Below, piece after piece: positions 3,480 through 53,124 of a stretch of DNA of 64,000 nucleotides. The stretch is from IMG/VR virus record IMGVR_UViG_3300024265_000041, positions 20,256 through 84,255 of that record. One strand, 5' to 3'. The DNA is from a virus. The translations under genes were made by a program, and so were the position numbers. The notes beneath the pieces were generated by a model. The model ran no database searches, was not told where the DNA came from, and saw only the letters and a program-made list of their open reading frames with translations. Position 1 is the first letter of the stretch. Each line of letters begins with the position of its first letter.

Positions 3480-3866
3480 TTGCAAAGACAAACTTCATTA
3501 TTACTTTACATTACTGCACACCAACATACCAAATTTGAGTGGGGAGTGAATGATTGTTGTACTTTTTCCTGTAACTGGTTTAAGGAAATCACCGGTAAAA
3601 ATTTACTCCCACTAGTAGGGGGTGATTACAACGACGAAAAAGGAGCTATGCTATTATTAGAAAAATTTGGTAGGGATAATGCATCTGCTTTATTTGGGGA
3701 GGAAATTCACCCAAGTTTAGCCACCCCCGGAGATATAGTTGAGGCAGATATGGAATACGGTGAAACTTTAGGGATTTGCTTAGGATTAGATTCAGCATTT
3801 ATAGGGATTAAAGAACTTATAACAGTAAGAACTCTAGAATGTAAACGAGCCTGGAGGGTTAACTAA
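3480..3866 (+). CDS. NlpC/P60-like tail assembly protein (DUF6950-like)
   Basis: FEWGVNDCCTF motif, A.PGDIV, LGICLG; sits between hub and tip protein. Confidence 0.75.
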   Translation: MQRQTSLLLYITAHQHTKFEWGVNDCCTFSCNWFKEITGKNLLPLVGGDYNDEKGAMLLLEKFGRDNASALFGEEIHPSLATPGDIVEADMEYGETLGICLGLDSAFIGIKELITVRTLECKRAWRVN

Positions 3867-6800
3867 TGCCACCAGCAGTAGCAGCTGTAGCAACAATAGT
3901 TGCAGGGTTCGTTATCAAAAATATAGTCATCTATGTGGTGGTTGTTCTTTTGATAAACATGGCTGCTGCTAGCTATGCCAGACATCATCAACCTACCTTT
4001 TCTGACCCTGCTGATAATCGTAGGTTAGTTTCTAGAAGTAGTGTATCTCCAACCATTATTCTGTACGGAGAGAGGAGACTCGGAGGCACTATGGTTTATT
4101 GGGCAACCGGAGGGGGCGCAAAGCCTAATGCCCCTCCTAAATCTCTGTGTATGGTCCTTTGTTTAACTCAACATGAAATTAATAGTATTGGTGATGTTTA
4201 TCTTGGGGATACTTTGTCAACAGATCCTTCTATCCCTGTAGCTGATACTTTTGAGAAATTTACAGGAGCTAGTGGGCAGACTGTAAGCACTACGGTTCAG
4301 CAGTATAATGTAAGTGGAGAACCATGGACTACTAGTTTTACTGGGGACAGTGTTGCTTATTTGGTCATTGTTCTTGATAGCTATGAGGACTGGGATAGGA
4401 TCCCAGATGTTTCTACTGTATGCCAGGGGTCTAAAATTTATGACCCAAGAAAAGATAGCACTAATGGAGGGTCTGGATCTCATCGTTACACTGACCCCTC
4501 TACATGGGAGTACTCAAATAACCCAGCTTTGATTGCCAGAGATTATCTCACTAGGGATGAAGGATTTGGGGAAGACCATATTAAAATTGATGACGCCTTT
4601 ACTATCGCGTCTGCAAACACATGTGATATTTGGGAAGCTGTACCTGAAGATGAAGATGGTACAGACATATCTTTTGATTCTGCTAGTAGTGAGATTAGGG
4701 ACGTTGGGGCTACCCTTCCTGTCTACTCAGTTGGGACTCCAATTTTGATTTCAGGGTCTTCTAGCAATAATGGAAACCATACAGTCTTAACTAGTACTTC
4801 TGCTGTCTTAACAACAACAGGATCCCCGGCAATAGTTACAGAAGCTGCTGGAAGTTTGGTTGTAGTTTCTGAACGACAACCAAGGTACTCGTGTGATCTT
4901 GCCCTCTCACTAACTCAGTCCAGAAAGGAAAATCTTCTTCAAATCTTGGAGACTATGTATGGAGAAGTAGTTTATGTAGGAGGGGAATGGAAGATCATGG
5001 CAGGGGAGTTTACCACTCCTACTTTTACTATAATAGAAGACGACATTGTAGGATCCTTTGCAATCGGTAGTAGCACTTCTGCATCAAATTTGTATAACTC
5101 TGTATCTGGAACTTACTATGATTCTAAAAGATTTTACCAACAAGTGAGTTTTAAGCAAAGAGACAATGCTGGGTATGTTTCAAGAGACGGAGGTAGGGAA
5201 GTTACCAGGGAAATTAGATTGATTGGTGTCACCGATGAGTACCAAGCACAACGACTAGCAACATTTGAACTAAATCAATCAGAGCATCAAACCTTAGTTA
5301 CATTTATTGGTAAACCAAGACTGTTGGATCTGCATGTCAACATGATGGTTAAGTTAACTCTAGATAACCCGGCGTGGACTGATAAACCTTTCAGAGTCTT
5401 ATCATGGGAATTGCAAAAAGATTTAACTGTAAGTATAACTCTAAGAGATGAAAACTCTGGGGCATGGGATTCTGGGTTAGGTATTTATAATCAAGTTCAA
5501 TCTCATCTACAATATAACCCTTACATCCCAAGACTTGTAGACGTCCCTACTAATTTTAGATTTTTTACTGGGGGGAATATAAGCAAAGAGACAGCATTCA
5601 AATTATCTACTGATGCTATTAGAGGTGGGTATGGTGCCTATGCGTTATTAAGATGGGAGGATTCCCCAGACGATCAATTAGCTGGATATAGGATCAAATG
5701 GAGAGAGACTTCTTCTTCTGCTGGACTTAGTGATGCTATAGCGGAAATGGTACCAATTGTCTCTTTTGCTGGTAATGAAAATGACAGTAATCCAGATGCA
5801 ATTAATGACTCTATCAGAGAAATGGTTGGGGTGTACGGAACCAATACAGATACTTCTGGGATGAGCGGAGCAACGCTGAACCCTTTTGAAAGTGGGATTA
5901 AATCTATTAACGTGGCGGGTGACTCTGATAGGGTATTAGACATAACAACCCCTGTGGACGAATACCCTACTGATGAGTTTTCTATGGTGACTTTGTTTAG
6001 CGTAGCCACGGCTACAGCAGACACAACTATTGTAGGACAATGGGGCAGTACAGACGCTAAGAAAGGATTCAGATTTGGTACAATGGAGGGCTCTACTAAT
6101 ATTGGGGTCACGGTTTATGATAGTACAGGGACTAAGCGGGAGATCGATTCTGGGGCTGTTTACGATGGAGATGTTGCCCACATAGCAGTGATATCAAAAC
6201 GAGATGATAAATTAATTTTAGAAATCGACGGAGCCCCAGTTGGTGAGTACAATTTTACTGGTGGTGACACTATGAATTGGGACCAGACTGAAGACCTCAA
6301 GATTGGAGGAGGATCGGTAGGTGCAGTTCATAATGGACGGTGGAGTAACGCTTTAGTTACGAATCGACACATGGATGAGTACGAAAGGGAGAACGCTTAT
6401 AATCTTTGGGCTACTGGAGATGTAGCTATTGGGAAGGCAAACACTTGGAATCGAGATTCGGTAGGTGAAACTGAACGATCATGGACAAGAAGATTAACAG
6501 AAGGGAGAACTTACGATTTTGAATTAGAAGCCTTCAACAAAAAAGGGTTATACAGTTCCCCAATTGCTTTGATAGGTAAAACTGTACTAGGAGCCACAAC
6601 CCCTCCTAAAGAATCTATTTTTTTATCAGCAATAGTAACTCCAATAGGAAACTTAATGACCCTGAATATTTCTAGTGTAGTTGCCAGAGATTTAGCTTAT
6701 GTAGAATGGGCGTACAGCACAGTAAATGATAGAGATGATTCAGTTATTCAGTACAGCTCTGTCCTAACTGAAATACCATCTGGGGCCCGAGGGTTCCCTA

Positions 6801-15599: not shown

Positions 15600-15858
15600 T
15601 CAGAAAGAACTGGTTAGTATTGAGTGTGTACTCCCAGCTGCAGCAGAAGGGATTAATCCTTATATCACTGATCCTACAGTTATAGAGACTAAGGACGGAA
15701 AGGTTTGGGTAGCGTGGACCCCAAAGAATTACGAGTTGCTTTCTAAAAACTTATCTCAGATAGAGGACGGGTGGGATGCTAGGAACAAGACTATAAAGTA
15801 CCTTAAGGGATGTATTCTGAGGTCAAGGGAGAAGTTAATGAGTGACCCAGATACATAG
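15424..15858 (+). CDS. o-spanin (Rz1-like lipoprotein)
   Basis: GGAG RBS, signal peptide with lipobox VLSG-C, Pro-rich linker; overlaps i-spanin in another frame. Confidence 0.8.
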   Translation: MSHKNLRKYLAYSRSMILSFCSCLSLLLCSVGFVMVLSGCSSLLRQKETPPAPPPVIIDQKELVSIECVLPAAAEGINPYITDPTVIETKDGKVWVAWTPKNYELLSKNLSQIEDGWDARNKTIKYLKGCILRSREKLMSDPDT

Positions 15859-15947
15859 ACCTTGATAGCATAAGTATGAATTAGTTTTATATTGTGGTAT
15901 TTTTAATGAGATTAGTATAAAGACTCAAACCGTTTAGGAGAAACAAA

Positions 15948-22640: not shown

Positions 22641-24827
22641 TTATTGCTCCCCTCCAATAAAAATGACGTTCTGAGCTATCGTCTGCTCTGCCATTCTGTG
22701 GGTAACGTACAGTATTTGTTTACCCGTAGCAGCCAGGATACCAGCGAGCGCCGCTGAGTTCTCTTCGTTCATTTGGGAACTCGCCTCATCCAGCATCAGA
22801 TAGCTGCTCTGGCCGTAGAAAAGATCACATAGAGCTAACCTCAAAGCTACCCCCATAATCTCCTGTTGGCAACCAGAGGCCGATTTGACGGAGAATTCTC
22901 GACCTTTCTCGACGTAGGAGAATGTACCGTTGTCTTTGAGGCGTATTTCAGTTATTTGATCTTCCTGGTTTTGTGTAGTGGAAGAGGCAATTTCGGATGC
23001 CCTGGCCAATATGACTCCCCAAATAGACCCGAGGAAGCGAGTTCTGCTATCGCGTAGGTACTTCTGGAGGTCCTGGGTGAGATTCAATTTTACCTTGACC
23101 TGTTTAACCTCCACCTCTTTGTTACGTGCTACGGTGAGCGCGTTGCCCTTAGCAGTGACATCATATTCGAGTTCGGTATCTTCTCGGGTAACGTCTGCCA
23201 AATTTTCTTTGGCGGTTTCGAGGTCGTTCTGACTGTGTCTTAATTGAGTATAAAATTCATTAACCTCCAATAATGAGGTATTAGCTATGGGCTCCTGCTT
23301 GGCAATATCGTCTAGTAATTGATTAATAGATCTTTTAAGTGACTCTAACTCACTAGTGGCAAGTGTCTGATCGCTAAGGGCCAAATTAAGGTCCTCCCGA
23401 ACGGTGGTCAGGGTTGCTAATTCATGTTCGGCTACTTCTATTTTGTCAGAAGAGGGTAGGTCTTTGTATTCTTCTATCTCTTTTTTAAGTTCACTCAGTT
23501 GGGCAACGGCTGAATCCAAAGCCTCCTGGGTTCCGTCCCCAGGGTGTTCTTCAATCAGTTGATCTAAATTCTCTTTAGACTCAGTGTAAGATTTAGATGC
23601 TATATCAGTCTCGCCCAGTAAGATTTCTGTACGGGCATTTAGTTTTTTTATCTCAGTTTCTAAATCTCTTTGATTGAAGTTTTCGTGTTCCCTGTGACAG
23701 GTTGGGCACTCACCTTCGTCTAACGCTTTTTCCAATCTGCTAATATCCAACTGGATAGATCGGACAGACTCTTTGGCAGTAACATAAATTTTCTCCAAAC
23801 CGTCTAATTGAGATTGTTCGTTGGCAATTACTATGTCTAGTTCCTCTGCCAACTTCACATTAGGTTTCCCTGTTATACCTATCCATTCTTCAGTCTCATA
23901 CAAAGAAATTTCAGCAGAGTCCCGTCTGGGAGCTTTCTTTGCATTCTCCAAATGGTTCTTAAGAAACTCAGATTCTTTTTTGGTTGCAGCCTGAGCCTGT
24001 TCAGCTAAGTCTTTAGGGAACGAGTTCACTTGATCCTTACTCTCTTCAAATTGTTTTTCTACATCCATCAACCTGATTTTAAGACCTGCCATACAATCTA
24101 TAGCAAAGTTAACTTTCTCGTTGGATGCCTCAGCTTTACGAATATTTTCTTCTAACTCTTTTTTCTTATTACAGGCATTATCAAAAACTTCAGCTGCATC
24201 TTTAAGGGTGGAAGCGTGAAGCTCGTGAGCAACCTCTGACTCCTTCAGCATTTCTTTTAACTGTTCAATACTGAACTCACCGATATCCATCCCTTCAATT
24301 TTCCCAGACAGGAAGGTAGCATTTTTACCGGCCTTCTTAATCATCTTGTCGATGATTGAAATCTTGGCCATGGCCTCAACTTTCTTCTGCAGGTCGGTAG
24401 CCCCTATTGTTAGGAGAACGCTGGTCTCCATCTGGCGAGAGTAAGTGTGGGTGAGGAATTCTTTTACATCTGCCCCGTAAGTATCCTCTACCCAGGAAGT
24501 GACTGACGTGCTCCCTGTGGCTATCATCTCCCCAGTTTTTACGTTAAGAACTTTGGCATCTTTATGGGTACGGATAACTTCAACTTCGGTTCCGTCTTCC
24601 GGGGTTATTAAATTTAATGAGACCTTACATGACTTCTCCCCGGTTGTGATTAACTCAGATTTATCACTACCAATTGCCCTCATGCCATACAAGGCAAAAG
24701 CAATTGCTGCTAGTAACGTAGATTTACCTGAGAAGTTTGGCCCACGAATGACGTTCATCCCGTCAGTAAAATTTACAGATAAGCTGTTGTGCTTTTTAAA
24801 ATTGGTTAGTTCTGCTGCTAGTAGCAT
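22641..24827 (-). CDS. sbcC: SbcC/Rad50-like ATPase (recombination nuclease subunit)
   Basis: Walker A GPNFSGKST, coiled coil with CPTC Zn hook, signature ASGCQ, Walker B LMLDE, VTH. Confidence 0.93.
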   Translation of the reverse strand: MLLAAELTNFKKHNSLSVNFTDGMNVIRGPNFSGKSTLLAAIAFALYGMRAIGSDKSELITTGEKSCKVSLNLITPEDGTEVEVIRTHKDAKVLNVKTGEMIATGSTSVTSWVEDTYGADVKEFLTHTYSRQMETSVLLTIGATDLQKKVEAMAKISIIDKMIKKAGKNATFLSGKIEGMDIGEFSIEQLKEMLKESEVAHELHASTLKDAAEVFDNACNKKKELEENIRKAEASNEKVNFAIDCMAGLKIRLMDVEKQFEESKDQVNSFPKDLAEQAQAATKKESEFLKNHLENAKKAPRRDSAEISLYETEEWIGITGKPNVKLAEELDIVIANEQSQLDGLEKIYVTAKESVRSIQLDISRLEKALDEGECPTCHREHENFNQRDLETEIKKLNARTEILLGETDIASKSYTESKENLDQLIEEHPGDGTQEALDSAVAQLSELKKEIEEYKDLPSSDKIEVAEHELATLTTVREDLNLALSDQTLATSELESLKRSINQLLDDIAKQEPIANTSLLEVNEFYTQLRHSQNDLETAKENLADVTREDTELEYDVTAKGNALTVARNKEVEVKQVKVKLNLTQDLQKYLRDSRTRFLGSIWGVILARASEIASSTTQNQEDQITEIRLKDNGTFSYVEKGREFSVKSASGCQQEIMGVALRLALCDLFYGQSSYLMLDEASSQMNEENSAALAGILAATGKQILYVTHRMAEQTIAQNVIFIGGEQ

Positions 24828-24852
24828 CCCTTCATACCTCCTTCTATTTTAT

Positions 24853-29180: not shown

Positions 29181-29425
29181 CCTTCTCCTCCTGTGAATTT
29201 CTTTTCATTTTTCATGTAATCCAATACGACCTCTAAAACTGAGATCAAATTATCTCTTGGTAAGTTACTGCATGAAGAAGGGTAAAAGTTTTTTTCATTT
29301 TCACCTTGGATAGGGAATGCCAGGAGGTAAAACCCTGCTTTTTCCTCATAGATAATATCTAAAGTATCAGATATAGCCCCACCAAGTTCTTTGAGTTCCA
29401 TTTTAATTTCGTTCATTTTGAACAC
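29162..29425 (-). CDS. Hypothetical protein
   Basis: AGGAG RBS; overlapping ORF. Confidence 0.5.
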   Translation of the reverse strand: MFKMNEIKMELKELGGAISDTLDIIYEEKAGFYLLAFPIQGENEKNFYPSSCSNLPRDNLISVLEVVLDYMKNEKKFTGGEGCQKLH

Positions 29426-29445
29426 ACTCCTTAGGTGTTATCCTA

Positions 29446-32400
29446 CTAATCTTTACCTTCTGTTAACACTCTTTCTGAAGTTTCCATAATGGAATCCTCT
29501 GTTGGGTTAATTCCTATCTCAACCTGGGAACCCCAATTGATCCCTATACTAACATCAGCCTCCATTGGTACTGCATGTCCAGGGGGAGTCAGTGACATTA
29601 TTTCCGTCATTTCGTTAATGTAAGTCACTACAGTTGATACAGGTACCCTGGAAACAAATTCATCGTAAACAGGGGCGATCAATTTTGCTCTAGTACGCTG
29701 CATTAATTTAATCCTACGAACTATGCCCAAAACTTTCACTAGAATGTCAGCAGCACAACCCTGTATTGTGGCGTTGATAAGCTGACGTTCTGCCCGAGCA
29801 ACAGTTTGTTTGTTACTAGAAAAAATCTTGGCATCAATATGACGGCGATTACCAAAGGCGGTTTCGGTGTATCCATGAAGTTTAGCAAACTTGGCAACAC
29901 TCCTCTGCCAGGGTGTGATGCCTGGGTAGGTTTCCATTACAGCGTCGAATATCAGGTTAGCTTCTTCAAGGGTAATGATTAGTCGTTCAGATAATGTTAA
30001 GGCTCCTCCACCATACCCTATTAGAAAGTTTGTTTCCTTAGCTTTTGCCTTACGGGTGAAGACACAAAGTTTATGATGTTCTAATTCTGGGTTTTCGTAG
30101 TAGTCAACGTAATGGTCGTAGTCTAAATGCAACTTGTTAACTTTAGAAATGATACCAACAGCAGACTGACTATGTATGTCTCGTCGTTCAGATCCAATGT
30201 AACACCCCATCATTGTTTCGTCCTGACACTCACTCGCCATGATCCTCAACTCTTGTTGAGAGAAATCGATTGCTACTACCACATGAGGTTCTTCCCCTCT
30301 CTTTTTCCACCCTGCCCTCTGAGCCGGGAAGCAACTTCTTAGCCTACCTCCGTCTTTATAGCCAGAAACCTGCAACAAATTAGGGGTACCTCCAGAGGGT
30401 CTTCTAGTTACAGTTCCACAATTCTTAATAGAGGGGTGTAACATTTTGTCACTTGTGTAAACCCAATTTGGGTAGGGTTTGAAATACAGTCCATTATAAG
30501 TTTTATCGGTTTTAATAATACGCAAATAATCTAGGGCCTCTATTCTCCAATCCCCTTCTTTCATGTCATAAGCCTTGGCTGTATCCATAGCTAAAACATC
30601 AGTACCAGGGCTTCCCTTCAAATTATGTGTTGCTCTGAAGCTTTTAAAATCAGTAATTTTAGAATGTCTTCTAACCGGCAGTCCCATCATGCAATATAGC
30701 ATTGCCTGCATTTTTTTATAGGAGCCGACTTCGATGTGGGTGCCATGTTTGATCGTCTTAGTCGTACCATTCTCAGCCGCTTCCTTATCGATGAGATCTG
30801 CACAAAATTCAAGGAATGTCTCATAATTTTCCCCTTTTCTTCCCTTGAGTTGGTTGGCTGCTGGCCCTAACACTCTAAGGAACTCCCCTGCTAAACTGCT
30901 AATCTTCCCAGAGCTGTAAACCCCCTCGATGTAGTCTGCCAATCTAGAAACAGCCACTGAGACTGGGGGGGTAATCCCAACTATACCACAAACCTTTTCT
31001 AACCCTTTAACAGTTGGTAGCCACTTGGTAGAGGATGAGATTACTTCTTCAGTCGGAGGTACAAAAACACAAGAACCTAAAAGCTTCTCTTTTTCTGAAG
31101 CTACCCTGGAGTTTATTTGCTCAAGGTTTAACTTTTTCTCTTCTGGTTGATCTTTATTTTTAGCCACTAGGTAAGGCTTAACTTCAACTTTAATGAAACT
31201 GTCAACCGCTGCTGGGTTTGGTGTATTACAATTTTTCAACAGCAGCGGTAGTAACTTTCCCATGGCTTCCTCCGCCCCCTCCTTAGAGGACTTCACGTAC
31301 TCTCGTAACTCTTCTTCATCCAGTGGAGTACCTTCACGTTTCGCTTCAATCAAAACTCGTTCAGCGTCTGGCTGGTTCGCCACATAGAAATCCCAAGTGC
31401 CTTCTATCATCATCTTCAATCTGAGTAAGTCCCAGAGATGGGCAGTAACAATTGCATCGTCGCAACCGTAAGGGAAAGCGCACTCTTCAGCGGTCAGTTC
31501 AGACATGTTAGCTTTATCGCCCAGAGTCTCTAAGAAAGTTTGCTGTTTGTAGCCTAAAAGTTCTTTACTTAATGATTTCAAATGGGCGCTTAGATTTTCA
31601 TCTGCATACGCTGACATGATCACGGTATCCATAACTTTCTTTGGAGAGTACTCACATTCTCGTTCAGTCAACTCGACTTCAAAGGACTCGTTGTGAGCAA
31701 CCAAAGGCGTACCAGATTTTTCAGCCGCAGCTAAGAATTGACCTAAAACTCTATTAGGTAAATTGTTAGAATCTTTGTGGCCGGTGGTGACATAGAAACA
31801 ACTTTCGTAGTTAGCACCGAAGCAAAAGCTGGCTCCCACTGGTACCTGCCTCAGTACGTCTACGAAATCTTTGTTCTTACTGGCAATCTGCAATGACTCC
31901 TGCCTTACTGGATCAAATGACTCGTAATCGAACGCAACAATTGGACCCTCAGCGAACGCCTCAACTGCCTCTTTTAAATCTGCTTCCTCAAAAGTTTCTG
32001 AATCTATTAACCATGAGGTCGGGCATAACTCTTCCAGCCGTTCAAAATAGTCCATGCAATTAGCTTTCTCCAAAACCTCTCGCAAACGATCTTTACTTGG
32101 AATTCTCTTGAAGTATTTAATACACCCTTTCTTCTTGGCGAAAGGTTTCCCCACCCACTCTGGGTGTAAACTAGCCAACGAAAACATGATTTCCCAATCG
32201 TGTCTGTTGTCATAAAGTTTTCTTAAATTTCTAGATTCTTCTACTTCAAGTGATTCTAAAATTAATGAGTAGTCTGAGGTAGCTACACATTTTTGAATTT
32301 CCAGCATACCTTCAATTTCGAACTCCCCTAACAAAGAGGTAAACGCTGCTGACCCCATTCCTTTAATACCTGGGTAACAATCTGACCTATCTCCCACGAT

Positions 32401-39674: not shown

Positions 39675-39915
39675 CTTTACTTAAAGTTATTAAATCTGCT
39701 GGGTCTAGAGTTTTAGAAAATTCCTTACCGGCCTCTTTAAGAAGATCTGCAGCTAGCTTAACATTAGGAGGTATCCCTCCCGGAGTACCGTATATTGCAT
39801 GACTTATCATTATCACAATATCAGACAGGGGGCACTTGATGCCTTTGCTTTCTGGCTTGATCATCCTCATCTTTTTTAATCTTGCATACGACTTAAACTG
39901 AATCAACTCACCCAC
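39631..39915 (-). CDS. Hypothetical protein
   Basis: Overlapping ORF in operon. Confidence 0.45.
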   Translation of the reverse strand: MGELIQFKSYARLKKMRMIKPESKGIKCPLSDIVIMISHAIYGTPGGIPPNVKLAADLLKEAGKEFSKTLDPADLITLSKGVSDEISLRYPGRL

Positions 39916-51885: not shown

Positions 51886-51929
51886 TTTGTTTCTCCAATT
51901 GTTTGGTTTTCTGAATCTGTATATTACAC

Positions 51930-51996
51930 GAACAGGTATTAATAGGCAGTTGCTTTAGCCTGTCACTTACGCCCCAGCTTCGAGGGGACCTTATTC
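51930..51996 (-). ncRNA. Candidate structured RNA (three-way junction) between tRNA-Pro and thyA
   Basis: Closing stem GAAU(A)AGGU/ACCUGUUC, hairpins CCCC/GGGG and AGGC/GCCU; non-coding interval. Confidence 0.4.
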
Positions 51997-52007
51997 TTTA
52001 CTAATTT

Positions 52008-52084
52008 TGGTCGGGGCAACAGGATTCGAACCTGCGACAACTCGCATCCAAGGCGAGGACTCTACCAAACTGAGCTACACCCCG
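52008..52084 (-). tRNA. tRNA-Pro(UGG), CCA encoded
   Basis: CGGGGTG acceptor, TAGCTCAG..TGGTAGAG D arm, CTCGC-CTTGGAT-GCGAG anticodon arm, GGTTCGAATCC T arm, ACCA end. Confidence 0.97.
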
Positions 52085-52090
52085 TACTAT

Positions 52091-52666
52091 TTATTCCTCT
52101 TCTGCTTTATCTGCGCGAGCGTTAGCAGCGTCGTTCGAGTATTTAAGCCCTTCATACCGCTTAGATAATTTCTCCACGTTATGCTCAAGTGTTTCCTGGC
52201 GGGTGATGCCTAAACCCTGACGAATACCCGCCATGTAAAACTCCAAATCACCAAGTTCTTCTTTGGCATTTTCTCGGTCTAGATCTTTACCATAGATTAC
52301 AAACTTTTTAACCGCTTCTGACAGCTCCCCTGCCTCCCCGACAATCCCAGTAGCCATGTGCCAAACATGGGCTTTCTTTGGGGTTAGTTCAGCAATGATA
52401 TCTTCCCCCTTCTTACAAAGCGCCTTTACCATTTCTGAATGTACTATTTTCTTTTTAAAATCATTTGAATCTAGCTTACCCACTTCCTTTTTTGTTAAAC
52501 TTAAAATCTGGCTACGGAGAGACGCTATTTTGATTCTGCATTTCCTACTTGACAATGGAAGTACCCTAGTACACTCTGCACAGATCGTCTCCCCGTCCAT
52601 AAAAGTTGGCATTACCCCTTCCTCGCCACAATAATCACATTCTTTAATTGGTGCATCACTCATCAT
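52091..52666 (-). CDS. mazG: MazG-like NTP pyrophosphohydrolase with N-terminal Zn ribbon
   Basis: GIVGEAGEL.E.VKK, EELGDL.FY, N..KL.KRY; CDYC...CAEC; GGAGG RBS supports ATG 52666. Confidence 0.85.
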   Translation of the reverse strand: MMSDAPIKECDYCGEEGVMPTFMDGETICAECTRVLPLSSRKCRIKIASLRSQILSLTKKEVGKLDSNDFKKKIVHSEMVKALCKKGEDIIAELTPKKAHVWHMATGIVGEAGELSEAVKKFVIYGKDLDRENAKEELGDLEFYMAGIRQGLGITRQETLEHNVEKLSKRYEGLKYSNDAANARADKAEEE

Positions 52667-52681
52667 TACCTCCACTTTAAG

Positions 52682-52771
52682 AAATTTACATACGGAGTAG
52701 GTCGGATCCCTCTACAGGAATAAGGTTCGCGCTGACGAGGCGCTAATCCGATCCACTTCCTATATAAACTT
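52682..52771 (-). ncRNA. Candidate structured RNA: long stem topped by a three-way junction
   Basis: AAGUUUAUAUA/UAUGUAAAUUU, GGAAGUGG/CUACUCC, UCGGAUU/GAUCCGA; apical hairpins GCGC-CUCGUCA-GCGC and CCUUAU..GUAGAGG; G-U pairs indicate minus strand. Confidence 0.65.
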
Positions 52772-52781
52772 AAATTTCTCT

Positions 52782-52868
52782 AACTAAGTATAGGCAACTA
52801 GTGAACTGTTACGCTTTCTTTAAAGGATGGCTGTCTCTAAGCCTACCTCTTAGCTCCCATACTTAACT
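52782..52868 (-). ncRNA. 23S rRNA GTPase-associated-centre (H43-H44, uL11-binding domain) mimic RNA on a carrier stem
   Basis: 52797-52854 reads GCTAAGAGGTAGGCTTAGAGACAGCCATCCTTTAAAGAAAGCGTAACAGTTCACTAGT, 48/58 ungapped identity to recalled E. coli 23S nt 1051-1108; non-rRNA flanks pair to 13 bp. Confidence 0.88.
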
Positions 52869-52869
52869 C

Positions 52870-53124
52870 TCAGATATCTTGATCTCTTTCACGCTTTCCT
52901 ACTATAGTCCCAGCCAACATCTCTATGATTCTACCTGTCGCCATTACTAGAAACTTTTTCCCACTCTCGTCCTGCATTTGAATGTCGACTGTAGGTAGCC
53001 CGTTTATTGTGCCCTTGCCTACAATAACGCATTTCTTAATAACAAGTAAGGTAGTTTTATTTCCATACTTTTGAGCCTCTTCCGGGTAGTCAACAATCTC
53101 CACCTTAAAATTACGGGTTTGCAT
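52870..53124 (-). CDS. Hypothetical protein
   Basis: GGAG RBS; VIVGKGT..G.PTVD....D..G..F. Confidence 0.6.
   Translation of the reverse strand: MQTRNFKVEIVDYPEEAQKYGNKTTLLVIKKCVIVGKGTINGLPTVDIQMQDESGKKFLVMATGRIIEMLAGTIVGKRERDQDI

Follow-up and report, generated by a model that had tools for sequence, protein, structure and literature searches.

A self-closed copy of the ribosomal GTPase-associated centre beside a lone tRNA-Pro gene, mazG and thyA in a phage genome

Introduction

Why should a phage carry, within little more than a kilobase, a copy of part of the 23S ribosomal RNA (rRNA), a transfer RNA (tRNA) gene, and a gene for a MazG-like protein, with a thymidylate synthase gene directly behind them? 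The question is raised by a 1.24-kb stretch of IMG/VR record IMGVR_UViG_3300024265_000041, an 84,255-bp viral genome that is rated complete, has a GC content of 40.5%, and has a subsurface metagenome (DNA) as its sole listed source sample. We refer to the whole 64,000-nt stretch analysed (record bases 20256-84255) as the window, and give positions in it unless stated otherwise. On its minus strand the stretch holds an 84-residue open reading frame (ORF84), an RNA that imitates the GTPase-associated centre (GAC) of 23S rRNA (the mimic), a long hairpin (RNA2), a mazG-like gene, tRNA-Pro(UGG), and a spacer that leads into thyA.

Phages are known to carry tRNAs and a few ribosomal proteins. The initial annotation had gathered the parts of this locus into one coordinated RNA-plus-protein module acting on the stringent response. 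Our analysis leads us to favour, with moderate confidence, a different reading, in which the stretch combines a translation-related RNA pair with a nucleotide-precursor pair on one leftward transcription unit, and is not a stringent-response module.

Results

A self-closed copy of the GAC

The mimic matches the Rfam family LSU_rRNA_bacteria locally at 52870-52769 (43.7 bits, E 1.9e-11, model positions 1071-1177), and the match is restricted to the region of helices 42 to 44 (H42-H44). Its 58-nt core, equivalent to E. coli positions 1051-1108, lies at 52854-52797 with H43 and H44 contiguous and free of any insert, and is identical at 48/58 positions to the E. coli-type 23S rRNA of IMG/VR locus L002. 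When the two are aligned, the similarity to rRNA ends at the domain edges. The flanks of the mimic are unlike the L002 H42, yet they are complementary to each other, so that the element is closed by a non-rRNA stem, in which 52866-52855 pairs with 52796-52784 to give 12 bp with one bulge. The whole forms a free-standing element of 87 nt.

The secondary structure of the GAC is complete in the mimic (16/16 pairs). Compared with 23S rRNA there are compensatory changes at two pairs, 1053:1106 and 1058:1080, the second of which is a G-C that matches the Rfam consensus, and 1091:1100 is changed to G-U. The H43 stem (1057-1059:1079-1081) and the conserved 1065-1073 loop including A1067 are present, as are the H44 hairpin (1087-1102), its GUAA-type loop with A1095, and the 1082:1086 pair. 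Variants relative to rRNA are A1071/U1100 and A1061; the joint G1071A/C1100U change presumably touches a base triple in published GAC structures. The predicted fold has a minimum free energy (MFE) of -24.4 (z -1.98).

A model of the contiguous GAC (R1) scores the mimic at 88 bits, although the window copy is one of the three sequences on which R1 was trained; a true rRNA piece outside the training set scores 86 bits. The variant core has zero occurrences in 241 million metagenome records, and for this reason we do not regard the mimic as a recent rRNA capture. We conclude that the mimic is genuine and that its structure is under selection, and the proposal of a GAC-mimic RNA at this position, made initially from the sequence, is borne out by the Rfam match, the 48/58 identity, the intact pairing and the non-rRNA closing stem. 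Elsewhere in the window R1 gives one weak match at 24774-24834 on the minus strand, at the start of an SbcC-like gene (13.1 bits, E 0.6), which we take as chance.

A family of GAC mimics in phages

Related elements were sought by blastn among cultured phages and by a pattern scan of IMG/VR. Elements of the H43 type are present in unannotated intergenic DNA of phages pf16, XacN1, UNO-G1W1, Aeromonas 4_4572, GAP32 and CBB, with further blastn matches in Astolliot, Milchi and Pd_22F. In Pseudomonas phage pf16 the unannotated mimic (KU873925.1, ~29410-29615; L087:2985-3190) lies between tRNA-Asn and tRNA-Pro. In the Xanthomonas jumbo phage XacN1 (AP018399.1; L086:2985-3275) it is preceded by a gene for a 2'-5' RNA ligase, has a strong terminator of its own, and folds with a z of -4.28, and in Pseudomonas phage Milchi it has been annotated inside a hypothetical protein. 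The IMG/VR scan returned 97 stretches, corresponding to 69 distinct elements. Phage GAC mimics have no family in Rfam 15, and we found no description of them in the literature.

The family shares an architecture of closing stem, H43, UUUAAAGAGU, a variable insert, GGCGUAAYAGCACA and a closing strand, with lengths of ~120-410 nt where a simple closing-stem search located the 3' half. The insert sits between 1090 and 1091, such that it splits H44, and is preceded by the signature GAGU. The 1058:1080 pair covaries over the 69 elements (UA 23, AU 16, GC 29, CG 1). All 69 score between 31 and 48 bits on R1, compared with 88 for the window copy, which departs from the split type in having no insert; it reads GAAAGCGUAACAGUUCAC, with GAAA and not GAGU at 1087-1090. 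Judged from these sequences, the window copy is an insert-less variant that is nearer to rRNA in H44, and it could be ancestral, reduced or independently derived.

The contiguous-GAC matches in IMG/VR (L001/L085, L084 and L002) are true 23S rRNA pieces and not mimics. Two are 23S fragments at the extreme ends of short viral contigs (L085:1-206, the same as L001, and L084:2474-2726; Rfam LSU 102 and 118 bits), which extend into neighbouring rRNA with ~200 model positions matched. They adjoin phage-like ORFs, and represent either chimeric assemblies or genuine rRNA capture.

The mimic is linked to tRNA genes and not to mazG

The tRNA-Pro(UGG) gene of the locus is the sole tRNA gene that ARAGORN finds in the 84,255 bp of the genome. 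It matches the Rfam tRNA family with 59 bits, has its CCA encoded, and its cloverleaf, anticodon and acceptor end are all in order. It lies 698 nt downstream of the mimic on the same strand, and thus does not directly adjoin it. Among the proline codons of the phage 37% are CCA and 42% CCU, together 79%, a usage that fits a role for this tRNA in codon supply.

Two censuses were made of the linkage between these parts, one centred on the 69 distinct IMG/VR mimics (loci L088-L182), and one on 80 IMG/VR loci with homologues 51-68% identical to the window MazG, in which GAC-like elements were searched for with R1. A tRNA gene lies within 1 kb of the mimic in 47/69 cases and within 500 nt in 42/69, and the nearest tRNA is on the strand of the mimic in 65/65. 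Random placement within the same fetched loci would put 30.4 mimics within 1 kb of a tRNA, as against the 47 observed. The MazG-centred loci give a different picture, with a tRNA of any kind in 1/60 and no GAC-like element detected by R1 in any of the 80. Reciprocally, MazG is nearby in only 1/69 mimic loci (L131). Proximity of mimic and tRNA is therefore a habit of the family and proximity of mimic and MazG is not; the expectation that the mimic would co-occur with both tRNAs and mazG across phages is upheld for the first and fails for the second.

The tRNA most often found immediately next to the mimic is tRNA-Pro, which makes up 9/57 such neighbours versus 18/393 of the remaining tRNAs in these loci (odds ratio 3.9; p 0.003, with no correction for relatedness among the phages or for the 20 tests made). 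The single tRNA of the window is likewise a tRNA-Pro.

A single-domain MazG-like protein beside thymidylate synthase

The MazG-like protein matches Pfam PF03819 in a single stretch (29 bits, cutoff 22) and phrog_229 (7e-39). A search with its MazG domain gives 3159 homologue matches, to phage proteins of ~120 aa with 60-70% identity, and homologues P0002 and P0003 are 82% identical to the window protein. The acidic motif GEAGEL...EELGDLEF is invariant across the alignment (E110, E113, E135, E136 and D139), and the four-helix MazG domain with the conserved acidic metal-binding residues of the superfamily is present. In an AlphaFold2 model the domain has a predicted local distance difference test (pLDDT) score >90, and its best structural matches in the PDB are iMazG, DCTPP1/RS21-C6 and YpjD (template modelling score by target 0.53-0.68). 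A PDB search by sequence gave nothing meaningful, the DARPin rows being low-complexity noise. The equivalog for MazG of the E. coli type (NF007113, PRK09562; (p)ppGpp-hydrolysing, with tandem domains, ~260 aa) is not matched (20.5 bits vs a cutoff of 208), and the model superposes poorly on 3cra (root-mean-square deviation 17). The domain is preceded by an N-terminal CxxC...CxxC (Cys4) extension of ~70 aa (residues 1-70, 52454-52663) and then a long helix; the extension has a pLDDT <50 and is without counterpart in thousands of MazG homologues, save for the loosely similar P0005.

From these models the protein reads as a single-domain nucleoside triphosphate pyrophosphohydrolase of the iMazG/DCTPP1 type. 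The identity of the adjoining ThyA is clear (Pfam 4e-74; NF002498 483.9 bits vs a cutoff of 427). Because ThyA adjoins it and because it appears to be of the single-domain iMazG/DCTPP1 type, a role in the deoxynucleoside triphosphate (dNTP) pool would be the economical reading of MazG. Purified MazG of cyanophage S-PM2 neither binds nor hydrolyses guanosine tetra- or pentaphosphate, (p)ppGpp, and prefers dGTP and dCTP (PMC6850273). Given its single-domain type and the inactivity of the cyanophage enzyme on (p)ppGpp (PMC6850273), the part that MazG had been assigned in the stringent response is not borne out.

ThyA is found in 1/80 of the MazG loci. This instance is on a 79-kb viral contig (L059:1202-3336), where a ThyA 70% identical to that of the window lies ~950 nt upstream of the MazG homologue.

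Setting of the locus

The features of the locus are listed in Table 1, and their order on the minus strand is the one given in the initial annotation.

Table 1. Features of the locus in order of transcription, with the evidence for each.
Feature	Position	Strand	Evidence
ORF84 (84 aa)	53124-52870	-	ORF with GGAGA ribosome-binding site
GAC-mimic RNA	52868-52782	-	Rfam LSU_rRNA_bacteria, 23S alignment, fold
RNA2 (long irregular hairpin)	52781-52682	-	Fold energy vs shuffles
MazG-like gene	52663-52091	-	PF03819, phrog_229
tRNA-Pro(UGG)	52084-52008	-	ARAGORN, Rfam tRNA
Spacer and thyA leader (the 'third RNA' of the initial annotation)	52007-51886	-	122 nt, fold like shuffles
ThyA, thymidylate synthase	51885-51034	-	Pfam, NF002498

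In a crude gene call with ~116 gaps, genes are separated by a median of 14.5 nt; the two gaps within the locus, 194 nt between ORF84 and mazG and 122 nt between the tRNA and thyA, rank sixth and seventh largest. These sizes uphold the description of a tightly packed genome in which the gap before mazG is filled by two folded elements. Other long gaps (233-569 nt) occur in the window at 15600-15947 and 39675-39907, and outside it at genome positions 715-1283 and 3626-3996.

The stop codon of ORF84 is 3 nt ahead of the closing stem of the mimic. ORF84 has no family match in Pfam, PHROG or NCBIfam, and the best of its leads in Atlas, all of them weak, scores 0.89. A scan of the minus strand of the locus for sigma-70 promoters and intrinsic terminators revealed nothing convincing. 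No close relatives of the phage or of the locus were found by megablast against phages or by searching viral contigs with MazG and the primase, and no relative of the phage was recovered from metagenome contigs with the mimic-variant pattern and the MazG alignment. The primase shares only ~27% identity with its counterparts in Vibrio and Pseudomonas phages.

RNA2 and the spacer before thyA

RNA2 has an MFE of -32.2 kcal/mol (z -3.63) and 0/200 shuffles are as stable, such that the stability claimed for a second, long-stemmed RNA at this position is real. The predicted fold is an irregular hairpin of ~100 nt and ~25-30 bp with an AU-rich base and a branched GC-rich head. It ends 8 nt short of the mazG Shine-Dalgarno sequence, for which the predicted pairing is weak and of low confidence. 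RNA2 has no Rfam match at E<=10, and a structure model of it recovers no homologue from mimic- and MazG-bearing phage loci totalling 913 kb. The predicted duplex reaches the length (~20 bp or more) of an inter-cistron hairpin of the RNase III type, such as those between the early genes of phage T7, and it is plausible that RNA2 is a processing or protective stem of this kind.

We considered whether RNA2 might be the family insert in a new position, and rejected this as it has no similarity to the 69 mimic loci or to 24 MazG loci. An identity of RNA2 or the spacer with a known riboswitch or leader was likewise rejected, with Rfam at E<=10 giving only chance rows.

The spacer between the tRNA and thyA folds like its shuffles (z +0.15 overall, with sub-pieces at -0.22 and +0.72), and its Rfam rows are at chance level only. 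A three-way-junction RNA had been proposed here; with z about 0 and no meaningful Rfam match this is not sustained, and we read the spacer as the thyA leader.

Discussion

A proposed translation-related RNA pair and nucleotide-precursor pair

The RNA pair would be made up of the self-closed, insert-less GAC copy (an H42-like stem with H43 and H44) and tRNA-Pro(UGG) 0.7 kb downstream. The nucleotide pair would comprise a dNTP pyrophosphatase of the iMazG/DCTPP1 type and thymidylate synthase, presumably lodged by chance among the RNAs. The mimics are widespread in large phages and mostly sit within tRNA arrays, and the most likely course is therefore that they are produced together with the tRNAs and trimmed to small stable RNAs. 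In the relatives they may be released by tRNA-processing enzymes, and here release could be by a cut in or near RNA2, which would then be a double-stranded processing or protective stem that parts the stable RNA from the mazG-thyA message. The mimic probably imitates the uL11-binding and translation-GTPase docking site away from the ribosome, where it could divert or soak up a protein, factor or toxin that recognises this site. It might target uL11 or the base of the stalk, a factor of translation, or a toxin directed at the GAC.

Several observations weigh against this division of the locus into two pairs. At L131:8890-9602 a tRNA array, the mimic, tRNA-Ser, tRNA-Ile and a MazG-like ORF (hidden Markov model E 2e-11) follow one another in that order. 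Within the locus the elements are not set apart by any promoter or terminator consensus, and all the parts may be co-expressed. The Foldseek E-values of the MazG structural matches are weak (0.02). The window copy of the mimic may, from its sequence, be an independent invention, in which case the habits of the family would not transfer to it. Lastly, no close relative of the phage was found that would show whether this exact arrangement, RNA2 or the spacer is conserved.

Alternative explanations

An alternative that we consider unlikely, albeit less so than the others, is that the RNAs are an anti-toxin or anti-defence set, in which the mimic is a decoy for GAC-attacking enzymes (Tre23-type ADP-ribosyltransferases, for example), the tRNA stands in for a targeted one, and MazG and ThyA are bystanders. 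The strong same-strand linkage to tRNAs is consistent with this, as is the retention of loop residues in H43 and H44, A1067 and A1095 among them, but we know of no defence system aimed at the GAC. A GAC-directed toxin does exist, in that the bacterial toxin Tre23 ADP-ribosylates H44 of the GAC (PMC8661411). However, in most members of the family a large insert breaks H44, and such a target may or may not survive it.

The module of the initial annotation, in which the mimic titrates uL11 such that RelA is not activated, MazG breaks down (p)ppGpp, and the tRNA makes up for depleted tRNAs, seems to us improbable. RelA depends on uL11, no terminator consensus interrupts the parts, which are contiguous on one strand of a packed genome, and at L131 mimic, tRNAs and MazG stand in a row. 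Yet the linkage is not conserved, with 0/80 MazG loci having a mimic and 1/69 mimic loci having MazG; the MazG of the window is apparently of the single-domain iMazG/DCTPP1 type and not that of E. coli; its adjacency to ThyA points to dNTP metabolism; and the cyanophage MazG tested leaves (p)ppGpp untouched (PMC6850273). What survives of the coordinated module is the pairing of mimic and tRNA, whereas the membership of MazG, the role in the stringent response and the third RNA do not.

We are equally doubtful that the mimic and RNA2 form a cis-acting leader, that is, a 5' untranslated region of mazG-thyA bound by free uL11 or L10-L12 that tunes synthesis of the nucleotide enzymes to the state of the host ribosomes. 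Mimicry of rRNA in the leaders of ribosomal protein (r-protein) genes is an established regulatory principle and provides a precedent, and the two folded elements do occupy the 194-nt gap upstream of the mazG ribosome-binding site, which RNA2 approaches to 8 nt. However, most of the 69 family elements are beside tRNA genes (47/69 within 1 kb) and not upstream of protein genes, the mimic is self-closed and 100 nt from the ribosome-binding site, and the Shine-Dalgarno sequence is predicted, at low confidence, to be only weakly paired.

A bolder arrangement, which we regard as slightly less probable again, is that the mimic, RNA2 and the lone tRNA constitute a three-RNA cassette cut from one transcript, which would protect or re-tune translation in the host through capture of uL11, of a GTPase of translation or of a toxin aimed at the GAC, with the Cys4 N-terminus of MazG binding one of the RNAs and so tying nucleotide supply to the cassette. 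Finally, that the mimic is a functionless host 23S fragment decaying after illegitimate recombination is very improbable, because the true 23S pieces that do end some viral contigs (L001/L085, L084) continue into adjacent rRNA over ~200 model positions, whereas the similarity of the mimic stops exactly at the domain edges, its flanks form a new closing stem, it has compensatory changes, and its variant is absent from the metagenome records.

Significance

The insert-less variant, the quantified linkage to tRNAs and the negative result for MazG are new; the proposed island is not a new system. If the reading of a translation-related RNA pair is true, the presence of a near-exact RNA copy of the uL11 and GTPase docking site, together with tRNAs, in many unrelated large phages would represent a new interference with translation or with a translation-directed attack. 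The window mimic is the smallest form, without insert, and at 87 nt is a convenient object for binding tests. The clear negative on a link of MazG to the stringent response argues that this idea should not rest on adjacency alone.

Comparison with known systems

Among MazG-like enzymes, iMazG (from a Vibrio integron) and DCTPP1 are the best structural matches of the window MazG domain, yet the identity is ~25%, and the window protein differs from them in its additional, poorly modelled N-terminal Cys4 region. The MazG of cyanophage S-PM2 is likewise a phage-borne MazG-like enzyme that was formerly proposed to lower (p)ppGpp; its common ground with the window MazG is the Pfam family.

For the mimic, the leaders of r-protein operons (for example the L10 leader, RF00557) are similar in that an RNA outside the ribosome imitates an r-protein site on rRNA, and no r-protein leader family has an Rfam match in the locus. 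Those leaders are cis-regulatory, bacterial and loosely rRNA-like, whereas the mimic is near-exact, phage-borne, and has its relatives among tRNA genes. The tRNA cluster of phage T4 is said to include two stable RNAs that are not tRNAs, species 1 and 2 (rnaC/rnaD), which reportedly mature with the tRNAs; T4 gave no match when the phage collection was searched by blastn with the mimic.

With the bacterial 23S GAC (the tip of H42, H43 and H44, the site of uL11 and thiostrepton) the mimic shares its secondary structure, 48/58 positions and both A1067 and A1095, and it differs in being free-standing and phage-borne, in its unrelated 12-bp closing stem, and in the A1071/U1100 and A1061 variants. 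The other phage GAC mimics are also phage-borne, self-closed H43/H44 elements with a tRNA nearby on the same strand. Unlike them, the window copy has no insert, scores 88 rather than 31-48 bits on R1, and has a protein gene between the mimic and its tRNA.

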